Assembly (NCBI GenBank): GCA_021463865.1
Contig: JAJTXY010000011.1
Span: 1,761-65,760, forward strand
Source: Anaerolineae bacterium
GTDB lineage: Bacteria > Chloroflexota > Anaerolineae > Aggregatilineales > J027
Direction: 5' to 3'
Length of the DNA stretch: 64,000 bases
Made by a program: the position numbers and the translations under genes. Shown in pieces: positions 470 through 42,255 of the stretch. Numbering within the stretch: position 1 is the stretch's first letter; each line of letters opens with the position of its first letter. The notes under the pieces are model-generated. The model worked only from the letters and a program-made list of their open reading frames with translations. It was not told the origin of the DNA and did not search any database.

Positions 470-474
470 CACCA

Positions 475-2516: not shown

Positions 2517-2533
2517 CCGAAATTTTTCTCCAA

Positions 2534-2609: not shown

Positions 2610-2611
2610 TT

Positions 2612-7610: not shown

Positions 7611-8100
7611 GCATCTTGGTCAATTCGCGGATCGCCGTCTCTTCATCCAGTTCCATATTCAGAATCTGATTGAAAAGCGTGTCCCATTCTTTGGAACTCT
7701 CGCCCGTCATTTCGGCGAAGGTCTCCGCCAGATCATTGATCGTCATGTCCGCAGCTTCGGCAAATAACTCCGCCGGATACTGCTCTTCATAGTAGGCCAG
7801 CATCCCGTTCGCGTCGTCGAGCTTCTGGGCCACATAGCCAAGCTCGTCCGCGATCTTGTCTCGCTGCTCTTCCATTTCGAGCGCATAGGCCACCGCTTCA
7901 TCCCGTTGTTCAAGGATGTCGCGCATAAATTCCGCCGCTTCTTGGCTGAATTCTGCAACGGCCACCTCCGCACTCTCGACGATGGAGATCGCCACATCCA
8001 GCGCCTCTCCCCTCATCTGCGACGCTAAAAACTGCTTCAGCGTCTCCGTCTGTGTGACGACCAGCGCCAGTTTGTCGTGCTGATCCACTCCTACATTCAC
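7585..8100 (-). CDS. hypothetical acidic coiled-coil-like protein
   Basis: ORF in the operon with a 4-nt overlap with the upstream gene. Confidence 0.45.
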   Translation of the reverse strand: MNVGVDQHDKLALVVTQTETLKQFLASQMRGEALDVAISIVESAEVAVAEFSQEAAEFMRDILEQRDEAVAYALEMEEQRDKIADELGYVAQKLDDANGMLAYYEEQYPAELFAEAADMTINDLAETFAEMTGESSKEWDTLFNQILNMELDEETAIRELTKMLEKAVQGE

Positions 8101-8885: not shown

Positions 8886-9081
8886 CGTGTCCTCTCTGCT
8901 ATAATTAGGTTATTCGGGCAGCGGCTGCGTCAGACACCAGCCGTTTTTGTTTTTCTGGTTTATTCGTGATAAAACAAAAGCAGCTTCCTCAATGCTTTCC
9001 ATAAGCCACAGGAAACTGCTCTGCTATCAAGCCTATTAAATTGCAATATTACGTGATACTCAGGGTTATCACTAGGTAATC

Positions 9082-19979: not shown

Positions 19980-21206
19980 TTAAGGTTGTGCGGCAGTTGG
20001 AGGCGCGAACAATTCTGCCACCAATGCCAAAATATCACTCACGATGGGTACGAGAATATCTTCGCCATTTGGCCCAACCTGTGGAATAGTCTCCCCATAG
20101 GTAATCGAGCCATTTTTGATATTCTCACGCGGGATTTGCTCGGCTACCAATGCTAATTCCAATAGCTCTTGGAAGGTCATATCGGTCTGCACATTGGCGC
20201 TGACCGATTCCCAAATATTCTGTGCCTCCGAAAACAATCCCGTCGCCCCACCCAACGACATCAACTTCTCACGCACCGCAAAAATCACCTCTTGCTGGCG
20301 GGTTGCCCGGTCAATATCACCATTTTCGGTGGCACGAGTACGGGCATATTCCAATAACCGCTCGGCAGGCAGATTTTGACAACCCGCATCGAAATGCACT
20401 GGGCGAATACCGTAGCTCCCATCAGGATATTTCGGGTCGTCAATCGGTGCGGGTGGGCAAACTTCGACCTCCCCAATCGCATTGACAAAGGTGATAAAGG
20501 CATCAAAGTTAATCATGATATAGTAATCAATGTTGATGCCGATGAGTCCTTGAATTACCTGTTTGACATATTCCGGCCCCCCACCGGGATACTGGATGCT
20601 CTCACCGACAATATTGGCCGTGTTGATTTTGCCCTCGCTCCCAATGCTCGGAAACGTCACATAAAGGTCACGGGGGATGGACAAAATCGCCCCGGTCTTG
20701 GCAAGCGGATTCAGGCTCAACAGCATAATGGTGTCAGTCGGAAACGGCCCAGTTTCGCCCTGTCGCTGGTCAATGCCAAGCAGCAAAATATTGACGCGGC
20801 GCGGGTCTGCTAATTGATAATCAATGGGATTGAGACTAGCCTCTGTCGTTGCAACTTCCGTACTCACCGGGTCGGGGGTTGCCGTCGAATCGGTTGGGAT
20901 GGGTGTGCCATCTACCGCAGAGGTTGTTGCATCAGATGTAACTTGCACGGTAGGCTGAATGATGATGGGCGGCGGCGTCACATCTGTGCCAGTACCGGGG
21001 GCTTCGGGTTCTTTCAATCCCAAAAGCAACTCGGCTACCCGGACGACATCCACACCCTCTTCCAATGGCGCAATTTCGTTGAGTTCTTCCGTTCGGGTAC
21101 GGGCCTGTGAATAGGTAACTATGCCAGCCGCAATCGTGCCGACCATTGCCACAATCACCCACCCCATAATCGCCCATAGTGGTATACGCATCAAAATTCG
21201 CTCCAA
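19980..21206 (-). CDS. LytR-CpsA-Psr (LCP) family cell-envelope phosphotransferase
   Basis: N-terminal TM segment, then NILLLGIDQR...TDTIMLLSLNP...ILSIPRDLYV. Confidence 0.85.
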   Translation of the reverse strand: MERILMRIPLWAIMGWVIVAMVGTIAAGIVTYSQARTRTEELNEIAPLEEGVDVVRVAELLLGLKEPEAPGTGTDVTPPPIIIQPTVQVTSDATTSAVDGTPIPTDSTATPDPVSTEVATTEASLNPIDYQLADPRRVNILLLGIDQRQGETGPFPTDTIMLLSLNPLAKTGAILSIPRDLYVTFPSIGSEGKINTANIVGESIQYPGGGPEYVKQVIQGLIGINIDYYIMINFDAFITFVNAIGEVEVCPPAPIDDPKYPDGSYGIRPVHFDAGCQNLPAERLLEYARTRATENGDIDRATRQQEVIFAVREKLMSLGGATGLFSEAQNIWESVSANVQTDMTFQELLELALVAEQIPRENIKNGSITYGETIPQVGPNGEDILVPIVSDILALVAELFAPPTAAQP

Positions 21207-25338: not shown

Positions 25339-26748
25339 CTATTGGCAAGCCGCAAATGTCTCCGACACCACCACATACCCGCGAATATTCTGGGATACAA
25401 TCGCCCCACCAATATCCGTCTCCACATTGATGAAAATGACATACATACCGGGAGTCAGTCCCGTCGTATCGGCATAGACGGTCACGACATCATCCGACGT
25501 AGCAAGCGCTGGGGAAACGGTCACCTCTGGCCCACTTAGCGAGAGAGCGGGTTCAATCTTGGCATCAAACCCTGTACCCGGATAACCTGTATTGCGGACT
25601 TGGAATTGACCCACCTCGATAATCGCCGGACACGAATAGCCAATCTCTACCGCCATATCATCAAGAGCGACTAACGTCATTTCGGCGATTTCCCGTACCG
25701 GACGGCGCGGCATAGCAGCGACACTATAGAGCGCCAATGTCGGTTGCCCATCTGAGCGCAAAATTGAAAACCAGCGCATGTGGTTGCATTGCGACAACAC
25801 ACCCGGCCCTAACATTGACCAATTGAGATTCCATAAGAACATTGGCCCGGCCCACGCCCAATTTTTATCGGCGAAATCAAAAGCCCGTGCAATATAATCC
25901 GCTTGCGTTTGACCGGATACCTTCATCCAGCTAAATCCGGCAAATGAGAGGTCGCTCGCCAAGCAGTTGAGTCCTTCTTCTGCCGGGTCGCGCAGCCAAC
26001 CAAATTCAGTGAGCCACATCGGTTTGCTGCCTAAATCATATTCGAGCATCAAGTCACGCATCAGTTCAGTACGCCTAAAATTGAGGGTACGTGCATTGGG
26101 GGCATCTTCCGGCGGTGCATTATAACCGTAGGGGTGATAACCAAAGGCATCGAAATAGTTTCCCGCCCCGTTTTCAAACATCTCACGGGCAAAATCAACA
26201 TCGGTAATGGCATCGCGGCTGGGGGTGGTAATCGTAGGGGCAAGACCACCCGAAACTACAATCAAATGCGGGGCAACGGCTTTAATTTCAGTATAAACAA
26301 TACGCAGTAGTTGGGTATATTCCCACGCATTTGGGCCACGCGGCCATTCCATCTGCAAGTTTGGTTCATTATGGACTTCAACCGCCTCTACCCCTAAATC
26401 CACCAATTTCAAAGCCCGTGCGCGGACGCCCGATTTCAGGCCATCCCAATTGCCGTCACCGGGCCAAATTAGGTCGTAGCGATACAGCACTTTTTGGTTG
26501 CGATAGTAGCCCGCTTCAGTATCGGTATAGACTTTGACCCAATCCATGCCCAAGCGATCCACCCAACCGAGATCAACACTGGTATGGGGGGCAACATGGA
26601 TACCATAACCTAGATGTGGTCTTGGAATCATCGCGGCGATAGACTGAACATACGGTGATTCAGTGGCGAAGACACGGCGCGGCATTCCCCCCATTAGAGA
26701 AAGAAGGGTAAGCAGCACAGTCAGAACAAGGGTGATTTTTTGTTTCAT
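25339..26748 (-). CDS. secreted glycoside hydrolase, clan GH-A-like (GH5/GH39-type motifs) with C-terminal beta domain
   Basis: Signal peptide MKQKITLVLTVLLTLLSL. VEVHNEPN is an acid/base NEP motif and MWLTEFGW is a nucleophile TE motif. Confidence 0.55.
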   Translation of the reverse strand: MKQKITLVLTVLLTLLSLMGGMPRRVFATESPYVQSIAAMIPRPHLGYGIHVAPHTSVDLGWVDRLGMDWVKVYTDTEAGYYRNQKVLYRYDLIWPGDGNWDGLKSGVRARALKLVDLGVEAVEVHNEPNLQMEWPRGPNAWEYTQLLRIVYTEIKAVAPHLIVVSGGLAPTITTPSRDAITDVDFAREMFENGAGNYFDAFGYHPYGYNAPPEDAPNARTLNFRRTELMRDLMLEYDLGSKPMWLTEFGWLRDPAEEGLNCLASDLSFAGFSWMKVSGQTQADYIARAFDFADKNWAWAGPMFLWNLNWSMLGPGVLSQCNHMRWFSILRSDGQPTLALYSVAAMPRRPVREIAEMTLVALDDMAVEIGYSCPAIIEVGQFQVRNTGYPGTGFDAKIEPALSLSGPEVTVSPALATSDDVVTVYADTTGLTPGMYVIFINVETDIGGAIVSQNIRGYVVVSETFAACQ

Positions 26749-26883: not shown

Positions 26884-28425
26884 ATGACGCATTCAAGTGT
26901 TTCAAAACGTCGTTTATGGCTGATGGTCGGCCTGTTATGGCTGCTATGGTTTACCCGCGCCCATCAAATCATGGCCCTTGCGGTTTTTGTGGATGAAAGC
27001 CTGCATATTTTACGTGCCCAGATGGTTTTTGACTTCAACGACGCTACAGCTTCTATCCTGCCGGGCAAACTGCTGCTCTATTATTATCTGGGTCTATTCA
27101 ATCCGCAGGATGTGGGTGGGGCATGGCTTTCGCGGGAGGCGATTGCTTTACTTGCACCATTGGGGGCAGCCTTGACCTACACCCTTGCCCAACAGTTATT
27201 TCATCGCTGGTCAACCAGTCTGCTGGCAGTAATTTTATATGCCCTCTCCCCTTTTATGCTGTTTTTTGAGCGCATGGCCCTCTCCGATACCTTCACGATG
27301 ATTTTTGGGCTATCATTGGCGATTGTTTCCCTAAAACTAGCCCGCCACCCCACCTGCAAAAATAGCATCCTCGTGGGGCTATTGTTCGGCTTGGCACTCT
27401 TGGCAAAACTGATTGCCCTTCCTTGGATCATACTGCCCTTTCTTGCCTTACGCCTCTGGGGGCAAGCCAATTTACGTCAACTATGGAATAAGGTTGTCAT
27501 CATCGGGATTGCCGCTGCTATCCCCCTGCTTCCTTCAGCCTTTTATGTGGTCTATCAAGAAGCTGCCCAAATCGAAAATAAGCAGGAAGTTGTTACGACC
27601 ACCCTGTTTGTGCCCGCATCACAGAGCCGACTGGAGCAAATCACCCACAATCTGGATATTTATACCGAGGCGGTCTGGACAATGCTGACACCCCCACTAT
27701 TGTTCCTGATTTTATGCCTTACCTTTTGGCAGCTTCGCAGACGGCCCAAAGAGATTTTTTACCTGTTGAGTATCACCTTTTCAGTTTGGGGATTTATCGT
27801 TGTGACAAGCGCCCAACCCAGTACCCGTTATCTGGTGTTAGGCATTCCACCCCTCTTGATGGTTGGTTCGGTTGGTTTGGACGATTTATGGCGCACCTAT
27901 CGGTCATCTTCTCAAGTGATTTACCGAGTTGCCACCGCTGTCGCCATTGTAATCACGCTGATTAGCGGAATGCTGGGAATCCGATTTCTGTTCGATGGGT
28001 GGAATGACCCCACCAAGCTAATCCTAGCAAATCGGGACATCTGGGAATATTTTGAAAATACCGCGACGGGGTATGGCCTGCGAGAGGCCTCTGATGATTT
28101 GCCCAATCTACCTCCGCTGCAATCGGAAGATTCGACGATTCATGTAGCAGGATTTGTAGGAGCGTGTCACACCCTGCGACTGTACTTGCCTGCGGATTCC
28201 AACGTCGAATTGACCTGCCCCTATTTCAAATGGAGCATCGAACAAGCCCCCATTACCCTTGCCGAATGGGAACAGCGCATCAAAACCGATGGGGCATGGT
28301 ATATTTTAGCCGATGATCGCCAACCAATGGATTTATTCAGCCTGCCGTTTACGTGGGAAGAATTGGCTGTCTATAAACGGCCCTATGATGGCGTGACCGT
28401 GCGGTTATATCGCGTCAGCCCTTAA
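26884..28425 (+). CDS. GT-C fold membrane glycosyltransferase, GT39/ArnT (PMT_2)-like, paralog 1
   Basis: Multi-TM protein with a first-loop motif VDESLHILRAQ and SPFMLFFERMALSD. It shares the C-terminal soluble domain WNDPTKL...YKRPYDGVTVRLYRV. Start chosen at MTHSSVSKRR. Confidence 0.6.
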   Translation: MTHSSVSKRRLWLMVGLLWLLWFTRAHQIMALAVFVDESLHILRAQMVFDFNDATASILPGKLLLYYYLGLFNPQDVGGAWLSREAIALLAPLGAALTYTLAQQLFHRWSTSLLAVILYALSPFMLFFERMALSDTFTMIFGLSLAIVSLKLARHPTCKNSILVGLLFGLALLAKLIALPWIILPFLALRLWGQANLRQLWNKVVIIGIAAAIPLLPSAFYVVYQEAAQIENKQEVVTTTLFVPASQSRLEQITHNLDIYTEAVWTMLTPPLLFLILCLTFWQLRRRPKEIFYLLSITFSVWGFIVVTSAQPSTRYLVLGIPPLLMVGSVGLDDLWRTYRSSSQVIYRVATAVAIVITLISGMLGIRFLFDGWNDPTKLILANRDIWEYFENTATGYGLREASDDLPNLPPLQSEDSTIHVAGFVGACHTLRLYLPADSNVELTCPYFKWSIEQAPITLAEWEQRIKTDGAWYILADDRQPMDLFSLPFTWEELAVYKRPYDGVTVRLYRVSP

Positions 28426-28435
28426 GGAGTCCAAA

Positions 28436-29125
28436 GTGAATATCGAATTCCGTCTGGCCGTGCCCGCCGACGCGCCCCATATTTTCGCAATTAAACAAGC
28501 GGTCTGGCCTTCAGAATCGCCCAAAGGTCAGGCCTATATTGCCGAGGTCATCGCCCTGCCCGACCACGCCACCCACCTTGCTTTTGTGGACGACACACCA
28601 GCGGGTTTTGTGGATGGATTTATGACCTACACCCCGGAAGGTTTGCCGCGCTGGGAAGTGGATTTGCTAGCAGTGCATCCCGACTTTAGGGGCAAAGGCA
28701 TCGCGGTACGGTTGGTCGCCCTTAGCACCGAAACCGGACAGGCCCGCGGCGCGAATTTTGCTCGTGGCTTAGTCGAGATTGAAAACACAGCCAGCCAGCG
28801 CACCTTTGCCCGCTGTGCCTATACCCTCGAAAATCAACATCATGCGTTAATGGTAGGGTCAGAAATACTGATAGACATCCTTATTCTCCCGCCCGAAAAC
28901 ACCCTGTTGACCCCCGTCCAGACCATCAATTATTGCGGTATCTGGGTCGAGGGAGTGTATCAAAAAAACAGCTTCTTGGCGGGGCAAGTTCTCTGCACGC
29001 GGCACGCATGGGACTTAACCGGGGCGGTTATCCCCACCAACGATACAACGGCCCTACAAGTTGCCCAAGAACTTGAGTTCACCCTCGTCGGGCATTATCA
29101 ATGGTGGAAACGGAGTCTGGTGTGA
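28436..29125 (+). CDS. GNAT-family N-acetyltransferase
   Basis: LLAVHPDFRGKGIAVRLV is GNAT motif A. GTG start, with AAGGAG 7 nt upstream. Confidence 0.7.
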   Translation: MNIEFRLAVPADAPHIFAIKQAVWPSESPKGQAYIAEVIALPDHATHLAFVDDTPAGFVDGFMTYTPEGLPRWEVDLLAVHPDFRGKGIAVRLVALSTETGQARGANFARGLVEIENTASQRTFARCAYTLENQHHALMVGSEILIDILILPPENTLLTPVQTINYCGIWVEGVYQKNSFLAGQVLCTRHAWDLTGAVIPTNDTTALQVAQELEFTLVGHYQWWKRSLV

Positions 29126-30726
29126 AACGCTCACAAGAAATTCTCCCCACCGCCCTGTTGATTTTATTGGCCTTTTTCATTCGTGCCCATTCCATCGAGA
29201 GCCTCCCTCCTTTTAACGATGAAAGCCTGCATATCCGCCGCGCTGAACTGATCTATAAATTTACAGATCGTAATCTCAACATGACGCTCGGCAAGCTGCT
29301 TAGTTATTATTGGATTGGCCTGTTTCACCCTGCCCGCTTGGATGCCATTTTTGTAGGCCGAACCGCCAGCACCCTCTTTGCCCTGTTGGGTCTTGCTGCC
29401 GCCTACAGCACCGCCCGTCTTTTATTTGGGCGGATTGGCGGCTGGGTAACACTCGTGCTGGCCTCGTTTTCGCCCTTCATGATTTTTTTTGACCGCCTTG
29501 CCCTTTCGGACGCCCTGACCGCTGCATTGGGCATGTTGGTCATTTGGGCTTCGCTGTTAATGATGCGTCGGGCTAACTGTGGCAAACGCTGTCCATTAGC
29601 GATTTGGGCTGGCATTTTGAGTGGTTTGGTCATTATTTCCAAACTACTCGGCCTCCCGATGGCAGGAGTGCCGTTGGTCGCGGTGATAACCCTCAATCAA
29701 TCCAAATTCAGTGGGTTTAACCTCCAAAGCCTCCGTCAAATTTTGCGCACCCATCGGGATAAACTCACCACTGTCTATATCACCTTTGGTTTGGTAATGC
29801 TGCCGTTTATCTGGCATATCGCAGACCGCACCATCACAGGCAAATACGTCAATGTCGTCAACAACAACCTGATTAACGGAGCCGCTGAAGAAAAATCACC
29901 CCCACAGGTCTTGATTGATAACCTCTATAGTTTGTGGACAGCCAATCAAGTGCTGCACGGCTCTATTTTATGGATTTTGACCCTGATTGGGGCGGCATAT
30001 GTGCTGTGGAGGCGCCCCCGTGAAGGCAGCTATCTCATTCTCTCCACCCTACTGGCGTGGAGCATGTCGCTCGTGTTCGCAGCGGATTTATCCACTCGCT
30101 ATCTCACCCTCGGTGTGTTGCCCTCGCTGGTGATCTTAGGCGGTGCGGTTAGCTTGACCATCCAAGAGGCTGCCAAGATAAATATTGAAAAGCCTACCCT
30201 GCCCGTCACCATGCCCGAACGCGCTGCCATCGCGGTGCTGTTGGTGTGGCTGGTCTGGATTCCCCTCCCCTTTATCAACCACGCATGGAACGACCCAACC
30301 AAACTCCACCTTCCCGAAGCTGACCAATGGGAATATTTTGGCAATTTCGGTTCGGGCTATGCGTTGGTGGATGCTGCCCGCGACATGGAAAATTTACCCC
30401 GTTCCGAGCCAAGTGGACGTGTACAGGTCATAGGCCTAGTCGGTTCATGTCATCAAATCAGGTTGTATCTGGACGAACATGGCCCAGTAAAGCTAGAATG
30501 TCCGTTCTTTGGGTGGCAAGGCGAATTTATGCAAGAGGTCGCCAACTTGATAGATGAGCGAGTAGCGGAAGAAAGCACCGTGTATTTGTTGGTCGAGCCA
30601 GAACTGCGCTTTACCGATCTTTCGATGCTGCATGTTGGCTGGGAACTAATCCACCGCTATCCACGTCCTTTAAACGGGATGACGGTTGAGTTATGGCGAG
30701 TCTATCCAAATACCACCCGACCATAA
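29101..30726 (+). CDS. GT-C fold membrane glycosyltransferase, GT39/ArnT-like, paralog 2
   Basis: NDESLHIRRAE, SPFMIFFDRLALSD and WNDPTKL...YPRPLNGMTVELWRV. The start may instead be GTG 29122, overlapping the GNAT stop. Confidence 0.6.
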   Translation: MVETESGVKRSQEILPTALLILLAFFIRAHSIESLPPFNDESLHIRRAELIYKFTDRNLNMTLGKLLSYYWIGLFHPARLDAIFVGRTASTLFALLGLAAAYSTARLLFGRIGGWVTLVLASFSPFMIFFDRLALSDALTAALGMLVIWASLLMMRRANCGKRCPLAIWAGILSGLVIISKLLGLPMAGVPLVAVITLNQSKFSGFNLQSLRQILRTHRDKLTTVYITFGLVMLPFIWHIADRTITGKYVNVVNNNLINGAAEEKSPPQVLIDNLYSLWTANQVLHGSILWILTLIGAAYVLWRRPREGSYLILSTLLAWSMSLVFAADLSTRYLTLGVLPSLVILGGAVSLTIQEAAKINIEKPTLPVTMPERAAIAVLLVWLVWIPLPFINHAWNDPTKLHLPEADQWEYFGNFGSGYALVDAARDMENLPRSEPSGRVQVIGLVGSCHQIRLYLDEHGPVKLECPFFGWQGEFMQEVANLIDERVAEESTVYLLVEPELRFTDLSMLHVGWELIHRYPRPLNGMTVELWRVYPNTTRP

Positions 30727-30749
30727 TGGGTTATCACAGGTGAGATGTA

Positions 30750-32495
30750 ATGAGTGAGATTGCCAAGCATTCAACGGCAGCCGAGGCCGTAACCGCCCCA
30801 ACCACAGACCGTACTATCCCCCAAAGCGTCGCACAAAAACAAGATTTGGCTGTCGGCGCAGGGATTCAAGTTTTTACCCACCTCCTGCCGATGATTGGCT
30901 TATTATGGGGGTTCTTTTTGCTGCGTGCCCATATGATTGATGTCCACATGGCCTATTTTATTGATGAACTCAATCACGTCAGCCGCGCCCAAGTGGTCTG
31001 GTCGTTTTCGGACATCCAAATCAGCACCACCCCCAGCAAATTTCTGCTCTACTATTACATTGGCCTGTTCGACCTGCCGAACTACCTACCGGGATGGTTG
31101 GCTCGTACCCCCGTCGCCCTGTTTGCGATGGTTGGGGCAGCCTCGACCTATACCTTCACCCGCATGTGGTTTTCGCGTGCCGCCGCCCTCACCGCTGTAA
31201 TTGTCTTGGCCGTATTCCCATTCATGATCTTCCACGAGCGTATGGCCCTTACCGACCCTCTGACCGCCTCAATTGTCATGATGTCCCTGTGGTACAGTCT
31301 GGTGTTGGGGCGACATCCTTCCAAACGCGGGGGCCTCATTTTGGGTCTGATGCTCAGTTTTATGATTGCCGCCAAAATTTTGTCCGTCCCACTATTGGCA
31401 ATGCCCGTCGCGGTGATGGCCTTGTTTGGAAAAAAACCACTGCGCCTTAACCAGAATCTGCGCCAACAAGCCATCGAGTTATGGAAGATATACGGCCCAA
31501 CCTTGTTAAACGCTGCATTGGTGGTCAGCGTAATCTGGGGCATCATCATGGGCTTTTATTTTATACATGGCTTGTTATACCCCGAAGAATCCCGTCCACT
31601 GGTGGATGATTATCTCTATGGCCTACCCGACAGTGATACGGTGCTAGATGGCAACATGACCCATGTTGAAGAAGCCTTCCGCTACTTATGGGGGCCTCTG
31701 CTTACTGCCATAAGTTTTGTCGGCATTCTAGTGCTGGTGTGGAAACGCTGGCGTGAGGCGGCCCTGTTGGTAGGATGTATTCTTGCCGTGTGGCTACCGT
31801 TGATATTTGTGGCCCAGCGTCCCAATTCGCGTTATCTATCCGTCGTCGGTCATCTATGGGTCATATTGGCCGTGGGTGGGATGTTCATTCTCAAAGATGA
31901 ACTAAGCCGACTCTTGAAACCGACCCCGCTGAAGTTTGTCCAATGGACTCCCGTTGTTTTGTTGGGAGTATGGGTCGTGACCTTTGGCACACCTTTTAGT
32001 TATCAGAATATCTATGAGCCGACAGCCCTCAAATTACCCGAACGCGAAACACACGGCTACTTCCGCAATTTCACCGGATTTGCCCTACGTGATGCCCTCG
32101 AACTGGTCGAAACTCTACCTCCCATATCGGAAGGCACTAACCAGCGGGTGGTAGTAGGTATCATTCGTTCGTGTCCTTTCCTGCATTATCATATGGCAGA
32201 GGACGCCCCCATCAAGATTATCTGCCCGCCCGAACGCGAAGTGCGGCATGAAGTATTAAATGCTGCGCTAGAACAATACGGCGCGGTGTATATGTTTAAT
32301 GAACAACTGCCACCCCCGCGTACCGATCTCGTTTTGCATCGTGAACGGATAGCAGGTCGCGCCCAGTGGTTGGCAACCTATCACCGTCCGCATGGTGGTA
32401 TTATCGTAGACGTATATATCGTCTACCCCGGTCAAATTCCGGTTAGTGGTGTCCGTACCACCCCCGATGACGACGAGATACCTTTGGTTAAGTAA
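30750..32495 (+). CDS. GT-C fold membrane glycosyltransferase, GT39/ArnT-like, paralog 3
   Basis: IDELNHVSRAQ, FPFMIFHERMALTD and YHRPHGGIIVDVYIVYP. It shares long identical runs with paralog 4. Confidence 0.6.
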   Translation: MSEIAKHSTAAEAVTAPTTDRTIPQSVAQKQDLAVGAGIQVFTHLLPMIGLLWGFFLLRAHMIDVHMAYFIDELNHVSRAQVVWSFSDIQISTTPSKFLLYYYIGLFDLPNYLPGWLARTPVALFAMVGAASTYTFTRMWFSRAAALTAVIVLAVFPFMIFHERMALTDPLTASIVMMSLWYSLVLGRHPSKRGGLILGLMLSFMIAAKILSVPLLAMPVAVMALFGKKPLRLNQNLRQQAIELWKIYGPTLLNAALVVSVIWGIIMGFYFIHGLLYPEESRPLVDDYLYGLPDSDTVLDGNMTHVEEAFRYLWGPLLTAISFVGILVLVWKRWREAALLVGCILAVWLPLIFVAQRPNSRYLSVVGHLWVILAVGGMFILKDELSRLLKPTPLKFVQWTPVVLLGVWVVTFGTPFSYQNIYEPTALKLPERETHGYFRNFTGFALRDALELVETLPPISEGTNQRVVVGIIRSCPFLHYHMAEDAPIKIICPPEREVRHEVLNAALEQYGAVYMFNEQLPPPRTDLVLHRERIAGRAQWLATYHRPHGGIIVDVYIVYPGQIPVSGVRTTPDDDEIPLVK

Positions 32496-32579
32496 ACCAT
32501 ATCCAAAAGCGGTGAATCACTATAAATTCGTGGAAGGTCTATTCACCATTCAAAAGGGGCAGGTTGTCTTACAAACAGC

Positions 32580-34433
32580 ATGGGAGACAGCCAGATTATG
32601 AACACGTCAGGGAAGCAATCGGTTAATCAAACTATACTCTCTCCCGTATCCAACATCGTAATTGCGCCGCCGTTGGGCCATACCGGAGATATGACATCTC
32701 ATCCTACTTCGACTCTTCACCAACCCCATGCCGCCACTGCCGACTATGCTGGGTTGCGAGTCTTTGTTGGGATACTGCCTGTCGTCGCATTGCTGCTGGG
32801 TTTCTTTTTTGTCCGAGCGCATGTGATTGATGGCCCAATGCCCTATTTTGTAGACGAAATCCGCCACATCGAACGTGGGCGCATCGTCTGGTCATTTTCG
32901 GATACCCAGACCAGCACCACACCGGGCAAATTTCTCCTCTACTATTGGATCGGCCTATTTGATCTGCCCGATCATCTGCCGGGGTGGATGGCACGTACAC
33001 CCGTCGCCCTATTCACCATGTTGGGTGCAGCAGGGACATTCGCGCTGGCCCGTTTGATGTTTTCCCGCCAGACAGCCCTCCTTGCGCTTGCGATCTTGGG
33101 CGTTTTCCCATTTATGACCTTTTATGAGCGTCTCGCCCTAAGCGATTCCATGACGGCAGCATTGGTGGTACTCATGGCATGGTGGAGTTTAGTGGTTTTG
33201 CGCCAACCCACCGCCAAAAATGGTTTGATTTTGGGTGTACTACTGACGTTTATGCTGGCCGCCAAAATTCTCGCTGTTCCACTGCTCATCATGCCCGTCT
33301 TGGCGGTTATCCTGCTGAGTAAACACCACTTCATTTCGCGCTTTAATTTGAGCCAACAAAGCCTCGATGCGTGGCGGGCCTATCATAAACCTCTGCTGGT
33401 TGCCTTCGTGCTGACTGGAATCATTTGGGGGCTGCTGTTAGGCTTCTACAAATATCGCCAACTGACCGACCCCGCTGGTACAAGCCCAATCGTAGACCGC
33501 TACTTGTACGAAGGGGTGCGTTCCAATCTGCATATGGCGCAGCAGTTGTCTATCAGCGGACGCCTTATCAATAATTTGCGACGCACCGGGGAAGTGGTTT
33601 TTTATCTCTGGGGGCCGCTTTTGGCAGGGCTAACCCTTATTTCTTTGCCAGTTTTGGGGAAAAAGCAATGGCGTGAAACGGTGTTTTTATTGGCTGGGGT
33701 GGTGGTGTTATGGGGCACGGTTATTTTTTCAGCGGGCCGCCTCACGACGCGCTACCTGATGCCTGTGGGACACCTGTGGGTCATCTTAATCGCCGCCGGG
33801 GTGTTGGCACTGCAATCTGAGATGAATCAACGGCAGGGTCGTTGGCGCACCTTTGCATGGACACCCTTAGCTGTACTGCTGATTTGGGGCATTGCATTTG
33901 GTGGCCCATTCTATAATAAGTTGGTCGAAAATCCCGCCGAACTCGCCTTACCCGAACGCGACACCTACGAATATTTCCAGAACCAGACGGGCTATGCGGT
34001 GCGCGATGTTCTCCAAGATGTTGCCCAAATGCCCATTATTTCGCGTGATACCGATGTCCCGATTGTGTTTGGTATGGTCAGAACGTGTTCCTACCTCAGT
34101 AACCATATTTCGGCAGATGTATACAACCGCCTGCGGATTGTATGCAGCCCCGAATATACCGAATGGCCCGGACGGGATTGGCCCGATAACGTTATGCGTT
34201 ATACTTATCTCAATAACCTGTTAGCCGAACATGGCCCGGTTTATCTCATGATAGAAGAATTTCAAGAGGAAAGGGACAACCGCTTTCTCCAAATTGACCC
34301 GCGTATTTTGCAGGGACGTTTGGAATGGGTTGCCACCTACCACCGTCCCCATAATGGCGTACAAGTCAGCCTATATATCGTTCATCCACAAGGCCAACTC
34401 ATGAGCAATCTGCGGCCCTCACCGGAAAATTAA
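32580..34433 (+). CDS. GT-C fold membrane glycosyltransferase, GT39/ArnT-like, paralog 4
   Basis: VDEIRHIERGR, FPFMTFYERLALSD and YHRPHNGVQVSLYIVHP. Confidence 0.6.
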   Translation: MGDSQIMNTSGKQSVNQTILSPVSNIVIAPPLGHTGDMTSHPTSTLHQPHAATADYAGLRVFVGILPVVALLLGFFFVRAHVIDGPMPYFVDEIRHIERGRIVWSFSDTQTSTTPGKFLLYYWIGLFDLPDHLPGWMARTPVALFTMLGAAGTFALARLMFSRQTALLALAILGVFPFMTFYERLALSDSMTAALVVLMAWWSLVVLRQPTAKNGLILGVLLTFMLAAKILAVPLLIMPVLAVILLSKHHFISRFNLSQQSLDAWRAYHKPLLVAFVLTGIIWGLLLGFYKYRQLTDPAGTSPIVDRYLYEGVRSNLHMAQQLSISGRLINNLRRTGEVVFYLWGPLLAGLTLISLPVLGKKQWRETVFLLAGVVVLWGTVIFSAGRLTTRYLMPVGHLWVILIAAGVLALQSEMNQRQGRWRTFAWTPLAVLLIWGIAFGGPFYNKLVENPAELALPERDTYEYFQNQTGYAVRDVLQDVAQMPIISRDTDVPIVFGMVRTCSYLSNHISADVYNRLRIVCSPEYTEWPGRDWPDNVMRYTYLNNLLAEHGPVYLMIEEFQEERDNRFLQIDPRILQGRLEWVATYHRPHNGVQVSLYIVHPQGQLMSNLRPSPEN

Positions 34434-34438
34434 ACTTT

Positions 34439-35356
34439 ATGGACAAACGTACCCTGATTGTCGTCAATCCTAATGCTGGCAGTGGTCGTGCTGGCAAGCT
34501 GTGGCATCAAATTGAGCCGATGTTGTGGAAAGAACTGGGTGAATTAGTCGTCGCCATCACCCAACGCCTCGAAGATGTCGCTGAACACCTCGACAAAGCC
34601 CGCGCGGCTGGCATTTCACGGGTCATTGCAATAGGCGGGGACGGGACAAATCATGCCCTTGTCAACGCCATCCAAACCCTTGCCAAAGCCGACCCCTCCG
34701 CCCCACCCATGATCTTTGGACAGCTACCGATTGGCACAGGCCGCGATTTTTCCCGTACCCTCAATATTCCGATTGACCCCGAAGCCGCCGTCAAATGGAT
34801 CACGCAAGCCAATCCTAAGTCCCTCGATTTGGGCCACCTGACTTATGATGATGCCAACCGCTATTTTTTGAATATCGCCAGTGCAGGCATCGGGGGTGAG
34901 GTAGATCGTCGCGTCAATGCTCGCAGCAAACGCCGCCCTTGGACATTTAAATTAGCCACTGTTCAAGCCCTGCTCAGTTACAGCCCCAAAAAGATCAAGG
35001 TCATGTTGGATGGAGCGGCGTGGTATGAAGGCAAAGCATGGGCTGTGGTCGTCGCCAACGGACGCATGTTTGGGCACGGTATGAAAATCGCCCCCAATGC
35101 CGAAATTGACGATGGCCTATTTGATGTGGTCTTGATTGAAGATACGCCGCGTCTCTCTGCTATTCTTGCGCTCAATTCCGTATACAGCGGTAAGCATTTG
35201 CTGCGGGAGGATGTGCATTATAAGCAGGCTAAAGTGGTGACTGTCGAATGTCAGGCCAGTGCCATCGGCCTCGATATTGATGGCGAACACGCCACCGGAA
35301 ATCATTTAAACTTTTCGGTTGAGCCGGGGGCATTAAAGATGCTGGTCAGTGGATAA
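34439..35356 (+). CDS. YegS/BmrU-type lipid kinase (DAGK catalytic domain)
   Basis: NPNAGSGRA...VIAIGGDGTNHALVNA... Confidence 0.8.
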   Translation: MDKRTLIVVNPNAGSGRAGKLWHQIEPMLWKELGELVVAITQRLEDVAEHLDKARAAGISRVIAIGGDGTNHALVNAIQTLAKADPSAPPMIFGQLPIGTGRDFSRTLNIPIDPEAAVKWITQANPKSLDLGHLTYDDANRYFLNIASAGIGGEVDRRVNARSKRRPWTFKLATVQALLSYSPKKIKVMLDGAAWYEGKAWAVVVANGRMFGHGMKIAPNAEIDDGLFDVVLIEDTPRLSAILALNSVYSGKHLLREDVHYKQAKVVTVECQASAIGLDIDGEHATGNHLNFSVEPGALKMLVSG

Positions 35357-35368
35357 GAGGATTGGGTT

Positions 35369-36013
35369 ATGCGGCAATTCGCTATCGCGCTCATATTAAT
35401 TTTGGCTCTGGTGGCCTGTGATAAGGACGACCAACCGACGAAAATAGCACCGACGCCAACGCCAACCGTGAGTGTTATCACCAATTTTACTGGCCCCATT
35501 CTTAATTCTGGCGGTGGGTCAGGCGAAGCGTGTGGTGAAGCTGATCCCAATAATCCTGACGCCGCGTGTGGTGTGCCGGGAATATCCTCTATCGAAAATT
35601 CTGGCAGTAGCGCCCCCCTGCCACTTACCGAACAAACCGCTTTTGGCCTGACCATTGGCGTGCCAGACGGATTTTCCCCCGTCGAACTAAGCAACCGATT
35701 ACTGATCAGTGCCACCGACCCCGCCAACACCCCCGGCGAATTCACCGTCATTATTCGGCGTGTCACGGCGGATGAATTAACAGGCTATCTCGACCAGATT
35801 GCCGATTTGGATGCCACCAAGCAGTTTGACCGCCAAAATGCGAATGGTTCAATGACAGGCTATACCATTCCCTATGGAGAACGGGGTGAGGTTGCGGTAT
35901 TTGACTTAGGTGAAGGGCAGTCGTTATTTATCAATGGCTTTGCTGCGCCGGGCTATTGGGACACCTATAGCGCGACTTTTGAAGCGATGTTAGATTCGCT
36001 TCGTTTAGCTTAA
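35369..36013 (+). CDS. putative lipoprotein
   Basis: The signal MRQFAIALILILALVAC carries a lipobox-like LVAC. Confidence 0.6.
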   Translation: MRQFAIALILILALVACDKDDQPTKIAPTPTPTVSVITNFTGPILNSGGGSGEACGEADPNNPDAACGVPGISSIENSGSSAPLPLTEQTAFGLTIGVPDGFSPVELSNRLLISATDPANTPGEFTVIIRRVTADELTGYLDQIADLDATKQFDRQNANGSMTGYTIPYGERGEVAVFDLGEGQSLFINGFAAPGYWDTYSATFEAMLDSLRLA

Positions 36014-36021
36014 AAACAAAA

Positions 36022-36052
36022 CAGAGTATCCCAAAGGATACCCTGTTTTTTT
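36022..36052 (+). terminator. intrinsic terminator
   Basis: CAGAGTATCC-caaa-GGATACCCTG followed by T7. Confidence 0.65.
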
Positions 36053-36279: not shown

Positions 36280-38211
36280 ATGGGCTTCAAGAATACTTTC
36301 CCCCAATTGATACTCATACTGGCCCTTCTAACCAGCCTTATTGCTCCTATGGCGGCATTTGCTAATCCCCCACGCCAAACACCCCTGACCCAATATGTCC
36401 AAAGTAGCGATGGGCGGGTATCGCTGCGTCTGCCCGATAGTTGGACATATACTGATGTGGTGGCAAGCGAAAATATTCTCACCTATGGGGATTCCGCCGA
36501 CGCCGTAACAGGTCGCCTCAATGATGTGCGCGGTCAAACCAGCTTTATCGTGGGTAATGGCGGCACGATTGTCCTGCTTAATGTCGCCGATTATGGCTAT
36601 ACGACAGCCTCAATCGAGGTTCTAAAATCCGTGATGGATTCGGGTCTCCTCGGCGTTCAAGATGTTGGAGGGACTGTCCTTGAACAGCCTCAAGAAGTCG
36701 AAATCAATCCCGGTCAAACGATTTTTTTGGCCGTTATCGAAGCGGGCAGTGAAAAGGGTTATGCTGCCACGATTGGATTTGGCGACATGATGGCGCTCAT
36801 GACTGCTACAGGGACCCCTGCCACATGGGAATCCAACCGCGATCTGCTGTATTCGATTATTCAGTCGGTGCGTATGCCTGCCGACCCCAGCACTGCCCCG
36901 CCGGATGAGAATTTACCCCCTGAAGATGAAGTGACCGTCGTTCGGGCCACCGATGGCAGTCTATCTGTTGGAATTCCGACGGGGTGGAGCTTCAAAGATC
37001 AGTTGACCGATAACCAAATTTTTGTATTTGGCGAGACTGAAGCCGAAGCCGAAAATCGTTCAGTGTTTTGGATTTCCAACGAAGAAATAGTGGTCGGCGG
37101 GAAGGGTGGATTAATTTCCTCACGTCCCCTCTCTGAAATTGGCCTTGACCCTGCAACAGTCAATATCGGCAACACCTCCAACAACTTTATCCGGAATTTG
37201 GGTGTGACAGTAGTCGAAGTTCGACAGCTATTTACCGTCAATAATGCCCCCGGTGCCTATGCCGTTGTGGATTGGGGTCAGCAGCGCGGCTTTTTGGCAT
37301 TTATTGTCTTTGGTGAGATGCTGGCAATCGTCTACATCTCAGATTCGCCCGCAAATTTTGAAGCCTCCCGCGATACTCTATTCCCAATTCTTGAATCCGT
37401 TCGTATTCCGGCAGAAATCGCCGCTCCGCCCACCGCTGGAACAGGTGGAAATAATCCGCCAAATAATGGGGGAACAGGCTTAGGCGGTGTATTAGGCAAT
37501 ACGGGCAACACCTCTACTGTCGCCCTGCCCCAAGCCCTACGTAACGAAGCCGAGACGCTTGAAATATTGCTGCCTGAAAACTGGCAGACGTTTATAGCGT
37601 CTAGCGAGGAAGCCCTCATCGCTGGAGGCGATACCATCTATTTTGCCAGCAGCCAATCTGAAATTGATGTCCTGCGAAATTCCGGTCTCCCAGCAGCGGC
37701 AGGCGGGGTCATCATTTTCTTTGACCGCATTTTGATAGACGCCACCAAGAGTCTAACCCCCGAAGAGATTTTTGCGCTACTCGACCCTTCAGAATTGACA
37801 GGGCGATCCACCACGCAGACGGATACCATCAATGGTAATCAGGCCATCTGGTTTGAATTTAATCAGGAAACTCCAACGCAAACACATGGTTATTGGGTGA
37901 TATTTGTTTTTGAGGATAAGCTGGCATTGATGGCCCTACGAACAGCGCCCAGCGATTGGGAACAATCCGGGGCAATATTGGAGGCCATTTTCCGGTCTGT
38001 GCGCTACAACCCTGAAGGGTTAAGTGGTCTAGGCAGTACAGGCGGTTTGGGCGGCCTCGGCGGTTCAGCCACCCCTGCCCCATTACGTCCCGGCGGTGCC
38101 ACCCCCACGCCGACCCGTCCATCCGCCAGCCCGACACCAACCTTTACGCCAACCACCGATTCAGGTCAAATTCAAACGACCCCCACGCCTACTTTGTCAT
38201 CGGTAGGATAA
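36280..38211 (+). CDS. secreted protein with three internal repeats of an unknown domain and a Pro/Thr-rich C-terminus
   Basis: Signal peptide present. The repeat ends recur as SNRDLLYSIIQSVRMP, ASRDTLFPILESVRIP and QSGAILEAIFRSVRYNP. The tail reads ...PTPTRPSASPTPTFTPTT. Confidence 0.6.
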   Translation: MGFKNTFPQLILILALLTSLIAPMAAFANPPRQTPLTQYVQSSDGRVSLRLPDSWTYTDVVASENILTYGDSADAVTGRLNDVRGQTSFIVGNGGTIVLLNVADYGYTTASIEVLKSVMDSGLLGVQDVGGTVLEQPQEVEINPGQTIFLAVIEAGSEKGYAATIGFGDMMALMTATGTPATWESNRDLLYSIIQSVRMPADPSTAPPDENLPPEDEVTVVRATDGSLSVGIPTGWSFKDQLTDNQIFVFGETEAEAENRSVFWISNEEIVVGGKGGLISSRPLSEIGLDPATVNIGNTSNNFIRNLGVTVVEVRQLFTVNNAPGAYAVVDWGQQRGFLAFIVFGEMLAIVYISDSPANFEASRDTLFPILESVRIPAEIAAPPTAGTGGNNPPNNGGTGLGGVLGNTGNTSTVALPQALRNEAETLEILLPENWQTFIASSEEALIAGGDTIYFASSQSEIDVLRNSGLPAAAGGVIIFFDRILIDATKSLTPEEIFALLDPSELTGRSTTQTDTINGNQAIWFEFNQETPTQTHGYWVIFVFEDKLALMALRTAPSDWEQSGAILEAIFRSVRYNPEGLSGLGSTGGLGGLGGSATPAPLRPGGATPTPTRPSASPTPTFTPTTDSGQIQTTPTPTLSSVG

Positions 38212-38483: not shown

Positions 38484-38798
38484 ATGGAAACTTGGATTTA
38501 TGGATACATTGGAATTTCATACAGGTTAAGAGCCTTTCTGGTTGGCCTAGCAGCCCTTAACCTAACATTAGCTATGTATTTATGGTTTCTGGTCGAAAAT
38601 GATGAGAGTTCAATAGTCGGGGTTCTATGTCTGCTATTAATTTCCCTTGCCCTCGTGAGCTTAATGGCGTTAATCGGTACTTGGTGGAGAGAATATAGAA
38701 GCACACCCCATTTTATTGCCTATATCGAAAGGGCCTTTGACACAAAGGTGGTCAAAAAAGGTTGGTTCAATTCGGCGGCAAAAAGGCTTGTACATTAA
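38484..38798 (+). CDS. hypothetical membrane protein (AT-rich island)
   Basis: METWIYGYIGISYRLRAFLVGLAALNL... has two hydrophobic segments. Confidence 0.35.
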   Translation: METWIYGYIGISYRLRAFLVGLAALNLTLAMYLWFLVENDESSIVGVLCLLLISLALVSLMALIGTWWREYRSTPHFIAYIERAFDTKVVKKGWFNSAAKRLVH

Positions 38799-39558
38799 AC
38801 GTGGCTTCAACTTGGGTGGGCAGCATCGGGTCAAGGTGATTAGCGGCGATATACGCCTCCACCGCAGCTATACCCGCCTCCATTTGCGCGTCGGTCATGC
38901 GCCATGTCTGTGACCATTTGCGCTCTCGTAGATGCTGCACATAGGTAGCGGGTGAACGCAGGGTCGCATATGAATGGCGCAGTTCTGACCCAACGCTTCG
39001 CCACCCCGCCTCCGACAAAAAAGTTTGACGTTTCTCCCATGAAATCGGGCGAGTCGTCTCCTCAAAATGGCTGGTCGCTTCACGCCACGTCCTTTCCAGC
39101 ATATTTTCCGTCCCACGATCATTCCAGCCGTGCAGCAGCATCCCTCCCGGACGCAATATCCGCCTGATCTCATCAAGAACATCCATATAATTGGGAATCA
39201 GATGGAACACATGCACGGCGATAACCGCATCCACTGAATGGTTTGCAAAAGGCAAATGCGCGGCATTCCCTTCAATCAGGACAATCCGTTCACCGCCGTC
39301 TTTTTGGCGGAGGCGCTGCATCATTGCCAGCGATATATCAAGGCCAAGATAAGTACCCACACGCGGCGCAAGCGGGAGTGCAATTCGCCCCGTGCCCACT
39401 CCTATTTCCAATATGCGGCTGCGGGGGGTTAATTGACCTGCCTCGACAAATAAAGCAACCGCCTCATGCTCGACCCCCGGCGGAAATCCACGAGTCTCAT
39501 CATAATAATCGGCGGCACGATCAAAAGATACATATTGCAAAGTCGTCTGCATTGTCAC
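38767..39558 (-). CDS. class I SAM-dependent methyltransferase
   Basis: ILEIGVGTGRIALPLA (motif I), plus DAVIAVHVFH. Confidence 0.8.
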   Translation of the reverse strand: MTMQTTLQYVSFDRAADYYDETRGFPPGVEHEAVALFVEAGQLTPRSRILEIGVGTGRIALPLAPRVGTYLGLDISLAMMQRLRQKDGGERIVLIEGNAAHLPFANHSVDAVIAVHVFHLIPNYMDVLDEIRRILRPGGMLLHGWNDRGTENMLERTWREATSHFEETTRPISWEKRQTFLSEAGWRSVGSELRHSYATLRSPATYVQHLRERKWSQTWRMTDAQMEAGIAAVEAYIAANHLDPMLPTQVEATFNVQAFLPPN

Positions 39559-39573: not shown

Positions 39574-41148
39574 TCACCAAAAACCGGGCAAAGGTGGAAC
39601 ATCCACATGATAAGCGGCGGCTTGCACATAACTTACTACAGCCACAGCCGCACCTCCTAAAGTGCCGATGGCTGCCAATACAAATAGGATACCGAGTACC
39701 AATACAATTAATCGTACCATCTCCACGTCCGCTTGGCTAATAGTGGCTTCGCTGGCCGTGCTCTCGAAAAAGGTGATTTCGGGATAGGCTTTTTCTAATT
39801 CGGCCTCATATTGATTGCCAATGACATAAGCAGCTACCACCAGCATCAAAAACATCAGCAGTGACACCACCGCCAAGATTATCCCGATGACCCCCCAGCG
39901 CCGCGCCGAACGCCACCGCCGGATACGTATATGGGCCGCACCTGAACCATCTTCAAAAACATACCCATCGGGTTCAAGGAAAATCGTCACCTTGTCTTTG
40001 CGGAAACCGGAAAATAGCAAAATCAGAAAGTACCACAGCGCCCCGATGACACTGGTTACGGCCACCACCCACCAGATAAGCCCCAACGACTTGCCATAGG
40101 CCAACATGATTTTGCCGGGGCCTTCACCCTTCAGCTTATAGCCACCATTCAGATACGTCTGGGTGCGCTGACGTAGCCAATAATCTGACGGGCCAGCGGG
40201 CTGTGGAGCGCCCCATCCTTGCTGCATAGGCATCGAGCGCGGCGGCGCAGCTTGTGCATAAGCCATTGATGGCGCGGCTGCCATCGTAACAGCCGATACA
40301 GGGGGCGGCGTATAGGGCGCACGCGGAATCTGCATTGGTTGGGGAACAGGTGGTGCATACTGCGGCATATAGGCATTCGGCACTGTCTGCCGATCCATCG
40401 GATGCGAAGCCGTTTCAGCAGGAATCGTGACCATTGGTGACCCGCGTGCAGGTGTAGTGGCTGGCGAAGGTGGCTGTTGAAAAGCCTCTGTCCGCGCTTC
40501 CGAGAAACCGCTAGGTGGGCTATCATCTATAATGGTTTTCATACCACTGGGGCTTGGCGCAACTGGCGGTTGAAACTCGTTGGGAGTTGAATCTACAATC
40601 CCAACCGGCTCGCTGTCGTCTTCCCTAACTTCTTCGCTGATTTCCTCAATCGCTTTTGGGTAAGCCTCTTCGCGGGATTGGAGGCCTTCATTTGGTACAG
40701 GACGAGCTTCATCTTCCATACCAACAATCGTCTGTGCCTGATAGATCGAAGGCAGTGGCTCATCCGTCTTAAATTCGATGGGCTGTTCATTCAACACACG
40801 CTCAAGTTCATCGGCGGCCTGATACGCTGGTTGTGAATCAATCACCGTCGCCATTGGTTCATAAGCCGATTCCGTACTCGGCGTAGGCAGCAAGACGGGT
40901 TCGGCTGGCGATTCTTCAACCAACGTCCGAGCCTGAAAATCCTCCTCCGCGCCTATGATCGTTTTGACATCGGCAATATCGCTCAATAGTCCATCGCAGC
41001 GAGGGCATCGCTGGGTATCACCACTTACAGCCGCACCGCAGTGTGGACAGATACGAAGTTCTGATGGCAACTTGGCCTCCTCAGAAAATTTAAGATACTC
41101 AGAACCCCATTGTACGACGAGAAAAATGAATTGGGTGTCGCCAGCCAA
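39574..41148 (-). CDS. zinc-ribbon (CPHC...CPRC) protein with Pro-rich linker and C-terminal multi-TM domain
   Basis: ICPHCGAAVSGDTQRCPRCDG, a long Pro/Ala-rich region and four hydrophobic helices at the C-terminus. Confidence 0.6.
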   Translation of the reverse strand: MAGDTQFIFLVVQWGSEYLKFSEEAKLPSELRICPHCGAAVSGDTQRCPRCDGLLSDIADVKTIIGAEEDFQARTLVEESPAEPVLLPTPSTESAYEPMATVIDSQPAYQAADELERVLNEQPIEFKTDEPLPSIYQAQTIVGMEDEARPVPNEGLQSREEAYPKAIEEISEEVREDDSEPVGIVDSTPNEFQPPVAPSPSGMKTIIDDSPPSGFSEARTEAFQQPPSPATTPARGSPMVTIPAETASHPMDRQTVPNAYMPQYAPPVPQPMQIPRAPYTPPPVSAVTMAAAPSMAYAQAAPPRSMPMQQGWGAPQPAGPSDYWLRQRTQTYLNGGYKLKGEGPGKIMLAYGKSLGLIWWVVAVTSVIGALWYFLILLFSGFRKDKVTIFLEPDGYVFEDGSGAAHIRIRRWRSARRWGVIGIILAVVSLLMFLMLVVAAYVIGNQYEAELEKAYPEITFFESTASEATISQADVEMVRLIVLVLGILFVLAAIGTLGGAAVAVVSYVQAAAYHVDVPPLPGFW

Positions 41149-42120: not shown

Positions 42121-42255
42121 GCCCGGCCTTTCTTTTACATAATAGATGGTACGTTTAAGATGATTATACGACGGGCGACCCAATTCGCCAAAAGTTAACT
42201 GCTTGAGATTGATAGAAATTCGTTGTACGATGTGGCTAACCAATAAGGAGCGGCT

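Follow-up and report, generated by a model that had tools for sequence, protein, structure and literature searches.

The 64-kb window analysed here, a stretch of DNA from an uncultured Anaerolineae (Chloroflexota) bacterium whose positions serve as coordinates throughout, carries four paralogous genes, P1 to P4, which lie tightly packed on the forward strand between 26884 and 34433 in the list of open reading frames (ORFs) of the window and which encode predicted membrane glycosyltransferases of the GT-C fold. P1 (26884-28425; orthogroup GTC1) specifies 513 residues from its ATG, or 537 residues from an alternative TTG start at 26812. It is followed on the same strand by a GNAT N-acetyltransferase gene (28436-29125; 229 residues; PF00583), by P2 (29101-30726; 541 residues; orthogroup GTC2), and by P3 (30750-32495; 581 residues) and P4 (32580-34433; 617 residues), both of which belong to orthogroup GTC3/4. 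Next come the genes of a soluble lipid kinase of the YegS/Rv2252/BmrU family (34439-35356; 305 residues; DAGK_cat and YegS_C domains) and of a lipoprotein (35369-36013; 214 residues; lipobox ...LVAC). The intergenic gaps range from -25 to +84 nt: the GNAT gene overlaps the start of P2 by 25 nt, the kinase starts 5 nt past the stop codon of P4 and the lipoprotein 12 nt past that of the kinase. Immediately 3' of the lipoprotein stop codon lies a terminator-like hairpin (36018-36049) with a 14-bp stem and flanking T/A runs, which is the strongest stem between 25000 and 39000 and the probable end of the operon. The transcription unit is thus most likely made of seven genes, in the order GTC1-GNAT-GTC2-GTC3-GTC4-kinase-lipoprotein, and extends through the hairpin (26884-36049). 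An earlier reading of this DNA from its letters alone (hereafter the sequence-only reading) had placed P1, the GNAT gene, P2, P3, P4 and the kinase gene where the ORF list puts them. It took the kinase as the terminal gene; the kinase does follow P4, but the unit continues to the lipoprotein gene and the hairpin.

The resemblance between the four GT-C proteins, which had been proposed to be paralogs, is far above chance. Pairwise identities range from 30 to 44%; P1 and P4 can be aligned over their full length with 30% identity (BLASTP E 1e-54), P3 and P4 share 44% of their residues, and the four-way alignment contains 76 invariant columns. The individual motifs listed in the sequence-only reading are all found in the translations, including the D-E loop variants VDESLHILRAQ, NDESLHIRRAE, IDELNHVSRAQ and VDEIRHIERGR, the C-terminal YxRPxxGxxVx(L/V)(Y/W)xV, the runs VWSFSD, TTPxKFLLYY, IGLFDLP and ARTPVALF common to P3 and P4, and WNDPTKL common to P1 and P2. 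Its core motif (S/F)PFMxFxERxAL(S/T)D is present as well, but P2 deviates from it by FDR instead of ER. Across the family, conservation can be summarised by the signature R-x12-D-E-x2-H-x2-R ... P-x3-F-x-[ED]-R-x2-L-x-D ... K ... R-Y ... C-x18-C, in which P2 has the D of the F-x-[ED]-R motif in place of E. As P1 to P4 all keep the near-invariant D-E, R, K and R-Y residues together with the cysteine pair, all four look catalytically competent.

The assignment of these proteins to the GT-C superfamily relies on a family profile and on structure prediction. The Pfam family PMT_2 (PF13231; gathering cut-off 26.1 bits) is matched above cut-off by P4 (36.1 bits) and P3 (28.1 bits) and just below it by P1 (25.1 bits) and P2 (24.4 bits), in each case over the region of transmembrane (TM) helices 2 to 6, and it recognises 25/25 aligned family members at E<0.01, with a best value of 8.6e-11. 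An AlphaFold2 model of P4, built on the alignment of these 25 sequences, reached a pLDDT of 82.6 and a pTM of 0.84, and its top Foldseek matches in the PDB are exclusively GT-C enzymes. They comprise STT3 (E 2.5e-8) and ArnT (5F15/5EZM; E 8e-8), as well as ALG9/ALG12, AglB, Pmt4, PglB and AftA, over an overall range of E 2.5e-8 to 6e-4; among these top matches ArnT displays the highest target-normalised TM-scores (0.54-0.55). Both kinds of evidence on which the sequence-only reading had staked its assignment, a PMT_2 match and a structural match to GT-C enzymes, were therefore obtained, and P1 to P4 are each shown, at the level of profile and model, to be GT-C-fold membrane glycosyltransferases. 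At the sequence level, the family is isolated from the GT-C enzymes of solved structure. Indeed, PDB sequence searches with profiles of the four paralogs or of the 25 members returned no GT-C or other meaningful match, the alignment of the family profile with E. coli ArnT by hhalign was insignificant (probability 1.3%), and no NCBIfam model, that of ArnT included, is matched above noise by P1 to P4. In addition, the PMT module (PF02366) and the PMT_4TMC module (PF16192), by which GT39 and the protein O-mannosyltransferases (PMTs) are defined (PMC12331936), are not matched at E<0.1 in P1 to P4, nor at E<0.01 in the 25 members. The earlier label 'GT39/ArnT-like' consequently holds at the level of the GT-C superfamily and of PMT_2; a narrower membership is not supported, given the absent GT39 modules, the lack of sequence similarity to ArnT and a core of 11 rather than 13 TM helices. 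NCBI automatically annotates family members as 'glycosyltransferase family 39 protein', and the same results show that this public label overstates present knowledge.

The helices of the P4 model and hydropathy delineate 11 TM segments. Lys and Arg make up 19.6% of the predicted inner loops versus 7.9% of the short outer loops in the 25 sequences, with the reverse distribution for Asp and Glu, and these positive-inside counts place the N-terminus inside. The predicted topology is thus an 11-TM core with a cytoplasmic N-terminus, and with the D-E loop and the C-terminal domain outside the cytoplasm. The extracytoplasmic position that had been proposed for the D-E loop, rather than a cytoplasmic one, is in line with the model topology, with the charge counts and with loop conservation. 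In P4, outer loop 1 spans residues 81-134 and D92-E93 opens its first helix (91-105). Conservation peaks in outer loops 1, 2 and 5 and is lowest in the large cytoplasmic loop 3. Outer loop 2 contributes R139, R184 and D189 to the charged residues of the outer face, outer loop 5 contributes R391-Y392, and K229 belongs to them as well. Their conservation was counted in 150 full-length representatives with a pairwise identity of at most 50%: D92/E93 is found in 148, R139 in 150, R184 in 149, D189 in 147, K229 in 149, R391 in 148, Y392 in 149, C503 in 142 and C522 in 133, and H96, K117, P177 and F181 are also almost invariant. In M. tuberculosis PMT, mutagenesis showed one Asp each in loops 1 and 2 and an Arg/Tyr pair in loop 5 (R-x2-Y) to be essential (PMC12331936). 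D92, D189 and R391-Y392 sit in the matching loops, an equivalence drawn from topology and not from alignment, and the spacing of the last pair differs (R-Y vs R-x2-Y).

Beyond the last TM helix, P4 carries a C-terminal domain of ~160 residues (~451-612) that is placed outside the membrane. Neither Pfam nor a PDB sequence profile search gave a match for it. Modelled alone (pLDDT 84.3), it adopts a five-stranded α/β arrangement, for which the DHFR- and methyltransferase-like α/β matches found by Foldseek were rejected as generic (E >= 7e-3, TM <= 0.42). The domain, which had been described as unrecognised from the sequence, accordingly has no Pfam, PDB-sequence or meaningful Foldseek relative. 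A word-indexed homolog search with its profile retrieved two fragments from short contigs, which are uninformative on other architectures. C503 and C522 are the only cysteines of P4 and are invariant in 25/25 aligned sequences; this fits a disulfide in an extracytoplasmic domain, which is probably stabilised in that way.

The family is restricted to one lineage. An exhaustive profile search recovered 445 representative clusters at E<1e-30, mostly of 480-570 residues and with matches over their full length. All members that carry a name are from Chloroflexota, mostly from Anaerolineae, and so are 50 of the 51 genome loci; the exception (L053) is a metagenome-assembled genome (MAG) labelled Gammaproteobacteria, whose match covers residues 76-191 at 30% identity (E 2e-4) and is the weakest but one of all loci. 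Gene context was compared by BLAST of the window proteins against the ORFs of 54 related loci. A recurring cluster emerged, in which the hydrolase gene described below, on the opposite strand, precedes GTC1, GNAT, GTC2, GTC3, in some cases GTC4, the kinase and the lipoprotein, so that the GT-C genes number three or four. Both near relatives (L004-L008, L021/L001) and distant MAGs (L009, L012, L013, L015, L016, L058) carry it, the GT-C proteins of the latter being only 33-55% identical to those of the window. In a neighbour-joining tree, the proteins fall into three orthogroups, GTC1, GTC2 and GTC3/4, with P1 and P2 each in their own orthogroup clade. The split between GTC3 and GTC4 predates the sampled species: both lineages have orthologs in other MAGs, and the P3 clade includes proteins from L001, L002, L008, L011, L014 and L017. 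A recent tandem duplication of P3 and P4, as suggested by their shared runs in the sequence-only reading, was rejected on this ground and on their identity of only 44%. The array is thus old and maintained rather than recently expanded, with three orthogroups kept side by side, which fits with the several acceptor specificities proposed earlier. Since the wider neighbourhood (M24 peptidase, CYTH, LysM, NUDIX) is likewise syntenic, conserved order alone is weaker evidence of function than the tight packing of the operon.

Two side observations concern the family in other genomes. In L004 (7282-8229), and also in L005, L006 and L021, a 315-codon AT-rich gene for a Macro domain protein (PF01661, E 7e-18) lies between the GTC2 and GTC3 orthologs, at a place where the window has a 23-nt spacer (30727-30749); this ADP-ribose-binding or hydrolase gene looks like a recent insertion, or like a loss in the lineage of the window. 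Besides, single-copy distant GT-C members in L027, L028, L030, L033-L035, L037-L040, L042, L044, L045 and L047 precede a convergent class-I S-adenosylmethionine-dependent methyltransferase gene, whose product is ~30% identical to the methyltransferase encoded at 38767-39558 in the window.

The GNAT protein, which the sequence-only reading had named correctly, scores 47.7 bits against PF00583 (Acetyltransf_1; cut-off 20.7) and its acetyl-CoA motif R-G-x-G-I-A is conserved in the orthologs. All complete clusters have its gene between GTC1 and GTC2. Its nearest PDB relatives are aminoglycoside and diaminobutyrate N-acetyltransferases, found only at E>=2e-4, and a conserved C-terminal extension of ~95 residues (T-x2-Y-x-G-x-W-x-E-G ... 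Y-x-W-W) matches no family. The proposed YegS-type lipid kinase is also confirmed (DAGK_cat E 2.5e-24; YegS_C E 8e-36; TIGR00147 166.9 bits vs a cut-off of 118.65), and it scores below the cut-off of every substrate-specific equivalog model of NCBIfam. The kinase gene comes after the last of the GT-C genes in L001, L004-6, L008, L009, L012, L013, L015, L016 and L058. The lipoprotein, without match in Pfam and NCBIfam, is conserved after the kinase in distant clusters at 34-37% identity; all its orthologs, including those of L012, L013, L015 and L016, keep, right after the lipobox cysteine, a Pro/Thr-rich stretch of the PTPTPT-S/L type and, behind it, a conserved F-x-G-P-x-L-N motif.

Divergent from the operon, on the reverse strand, lies the gene of a secreted hydrolase (25339-26748; 469 residues; signal peptide) related to GH39 and PslG of clan GH-A. 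As a single sequence it has no match in Pfam. A family profile of 30 homologs recovers PslG (E 1.3e-8) as well as xylosidases of GH39 (E 5.6e-5). The alignment with PslG covers the NEP (acid/base) and TE(F/W)GW (nucleophile) motifs, and both catalytic glutamates, E128 and E248, are invariant in the 30 homologs, in agreement with the GH-A hydrolase expected there from the sequence. The similarity spans only ~135 residues, and the Anaerolineae protein differs from PslG by an extra C-terminal β-rich region. With more than 300 clusters at 50-60% identity across Anaerolineae, annotated 'hypothetical protein' and devoid of a Pfam model, these proteins form, to judge from their sequences, a well-conserved and unnamed family of putative glycoside hydrolases. 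The gene adjoins the operon in L004-6, L008, L012, L016, L021 and L058, and not in L055-L057; in L055, it lies beside polysaccharide genes (GT2 and a Wzx-like flippase). An obligate link between hydrolase and operon was rejected, as homologs of the hydrolase occur without the GT-C operon.

On the other side of the hairpin, a forward-strand gene (36280-38211) encodes a secreted protein of 643 residues with three internal repeats of ~190 residues, each of which opens with a motif of the 'L-x-[LV]-x-[LI]-P-x-x-W' type; the protein also has a linker rich in Gly and a C-terminal tail rich in Pro and Thr. It belongs to no Pfam family, is syntenic and conserved downstream of the operon in L001 and L004-8, and shows a weak similarity to the lipoprotein (E 0.007). 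Its gene is probably on a separate transcript and its link to the operon is uncertain. Further downstream, two reverse-strand genes (39574-41148 and 41167-42243) without family assignment stand next to the cluster in all relatives; one of their products has a zinc ribbon at its N-terminus, TM helices at its C-terminus and a long Pro-rich region. On the upstream side, 6 kb from the operon, an LCP (LytR-CpsA-Psr) gene (19983-21206, reverse strand) is syntenic in L056 despite the absence of the operon. LCP enzymes attach glycopolymers to peptidoglycan. At the left end of the window (1-9000), reverse-strand genes for DUF3987, ParB_N, ParA/AAA_31 and helix-turn-helix proteins, a GC content of 0.53-0.55 vs about 0.50 and a strongly negative GC skew suggest that an integrated plasmid- or phage-like element may be present.

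Taken as a whole, the operon most likely decorates the cell envelope. Our preferred reading, which we hold with modest confidence, is that the locus is an Anaerolineae-specific seven-gene operon for envelope glycosylation whose acceptor is a wall-associated glycan or a lipoglycan. The acceptor, the donor and the parts played by kinase and GNAT protein are inferred. On the outer side of the membrane, each GT-C enzyme would use a polyprenyl-phosphate sugar as its donor. The Asp of loop 1 (D92) would serve as catalytic base with the assistance of the Asp of loop 2, the Arg, Lys and Tyr residues of the signature would hold the donor phosphate, and the C-terminal domain would dock the acceptor in position. 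The four enzymes would be non-redundant, since the gene order of the three orthogroups is maintained across MAGs down to 33-50% identity, and would act at different positions or in successive steps on one extracytoplasmic glycoconjugate. The hydrolase may trim or release the polymer in a PslG-like manner, the cytoplasmic GNAT protein may acetylate an amino-sugar precursor, and the kinase may supply or recycle a phosphorylated lipid anchor or carrier.

In favour of a glycan or lipoglycan as acceptor are the PslG-like neighbour, the analogy with EmbCAB and Mpt/Aft, and the precedent of GT136; the LCP gene, together with the hydrolase, provides a glycan context. Arrays of uncharacterised GT-C paralogs are common in bacterial genomes, and tandem GT-C enzymes with extracytoplasmic C-terminal domains are known from the Emb proteins. 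In Corynebacteriales, the Emb paralogs (EmbC-EmbA-EmbB, GT53) and the Mpt/Aft paralogs are non-redundant and use polyprenyl-phosphate sugars to build a single wall glycan or lipoglycan. The likeness to the present locus resides in the tandem paralogous GT-C genes, each with an extracytoplasmic C-terminal domain. However, the Emb proteins are larger (~1,100 residues), have 15 TM helices and end in C-terminal domains of the carbohydrate-binding module (CBM) type; no arabinosyltransferase Pfam match was found here, and EmbC (7e-3), EmbB (6.5e-2) and AftD (4e-3) are weak Foldseek matches of the P4 model. PslG is encoded in the Psl exopolysaccharide operon of Pseudomonas, and the hydrolase of the window lies similarly beside genes of glycan synthesis, although it is also found away from the operon. 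The GT136 enzyme ORF12 displays 11 TM helices, a small helical domain past TM1 with the catalytic Asp and an acceptor-glycan-binding domain past TM11 (PMC11127046). P4 shares this layout, with 11 TM helices, a small helical domain past TM1 that holds the putative catalytic Asp and an additional domain past TM11, but the C-terminal domain of GT136 is a β-rich CBM whereas that of P4 is α/β.

Several observations weigh against this preferred reading. First, the C-terminal domain to which we assign acceptor docking cannot be recognised as a carbohydrate-binding fold, and Foldseek gave it no structural relative. Second, the 64-kb window contains neither a donor synthase (a GT2 polyprenyl-phosphate glycosyltransferase) nor a flippase, whereas in three-component extracytoplasmic glycosylation systems of the Gtr/GT136 type both adjoin their GT-C gene; GT2, MATE, GtrA and Wzx-type genes are absent from the window and from the conserved clusters alike. 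Third, because the hydrolase family occurs without the operon and the flanking genes are syntenic, the adjacency of hydrolase and operon may reflect lineage synteny and not function. Finally, the parts given to the kinase and to the GNAT protein are conjectural.

The strongest alternative is that the four proteins are PMT-like protein O-glycosyltransferases, which would modify Ser/Thr residues in the Pro/Thr-rich tethers of emerging secreted proteins and lipoproteins, the operon's own lipoprotein and the 643-residue protein among them. The paralogs would then form heterodimers, as Pmt1-Pmt2 does, or differ in the proteins they accept. We consider this possible but on balance unlikely. In its favour, the PMTs (GT39; yeast Pmt1/2/4 and M. 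tuberculosis PMT) likewise have an 11-TM core with its N-terminus in and its C-terminus out and a D-E pair in outer loop 1 ahead of the loop's first helix; to judge from topology, the second Asp in loop 2 and the Arg/Tyr pair in loop 5 also agree with their layout, and Pmt4 and Pmt1-Pmt2 are among the structural matches. The PTPTPT-type stretch retained by all lipoprotein orthologs and the PT-rich tail of the 643-residue protein would furnish suitable targets, but such tethers are common in lipoproteins and hence unspecific. Moreover, 0/25 family members match PF02366 or PF16192 and no sequence link to the solved PMTs was found. The R-Y residues are adjacent instead of spaced as R-x2-Y, the MIR domain is missing, the extra C-terminal domain of ~160 residues has no counterpart in PMTs, and a PslG-like neighbour suits a polysaccharide better.

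More doubtful still is an ArnT-like function, in which the kinase would phosphorylate a membrane lipid or glycolipid and the GT-C enzymes would add GNAT-modified amino sugars to its head groups, with a shift in surface charge as a result. ArnT (CAZy GT83; PDB 5EZM/5F15) shares with the family the GT-C fold, a PMT_2-type core, an acidic motif in the first outer loop and a soluble α/β domain on the outer side past the last TM helix. Its target-normalised TM-scores also exceed those of the other top structural matches, PMT_2 is the matching family profile, and a lipid kinase fixed at the end of the operon and a GNAT protein inside it would suit this function. On the other hand, the 11 TM helices, instead of the 13 of ArnT, the C-terminal domain unmatched by Foldseek and the failure of both hhalign and NCBIfam to connect the family with ArnT speak against it. 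By comparison with the arn operon of E. coli, the partners ArnA-D and ArnE/F are absent from the window, and three or four non-redundant transferases seem more than the decoration of head groups needs. Furthermore, the host phylum is regarded as devoid of lipid A and of a lipopolysaccharide outer membrane (PMC10608941). Lastly, it is very improbable that some paralogs are catalytically dead, as redundant remnants or non-enzymatic scaffolds of what would effectively be a single enzyme: P1 and P2 do score just under the PMT_2 gathering cut-off, but the near-invariant signature residues and the cysteine pair are complete in all four proteins and each orthogroup is kept as an intact ORF across distant MAGs.

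To conclude, the envelope-glycosylation operon preferred here is an uncharacterised, lineage-restricted example of a well-known enzyme class and not a new kind of system; literature searches on Chloroflexi GT39, on Anaerolineae envelope glycosyltransferases and on links between YegS kinases and GT-C enzymes turned up no account of the cluster. A bolder version of this reading, which we regard as unlikely, would see a new CAZy-level GT-C family limited to Anaerolineae, with a new acceptor-binding C-terminal fold and a hetero-oligomeric assembly line of paralogs making a lipoglycan or wall glycan specific to Chloroflexota; the YegS-type kinase would prime the lipid anchor of this product, which would carry an amino sugar acetylated by the GNAT protein. 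If true, it would represent an independent analogue, in Chloroflexota, of the mycobacterial machinery for lipomannan and for the arabinan of lipoarabinomannan. Sediments, digesters and biofilms harbour abundant Anaerolineae, the chemistry of whose cell envelope is almost unknown; the operon, the family signature and the predicted topology offer a concrete target for its study.

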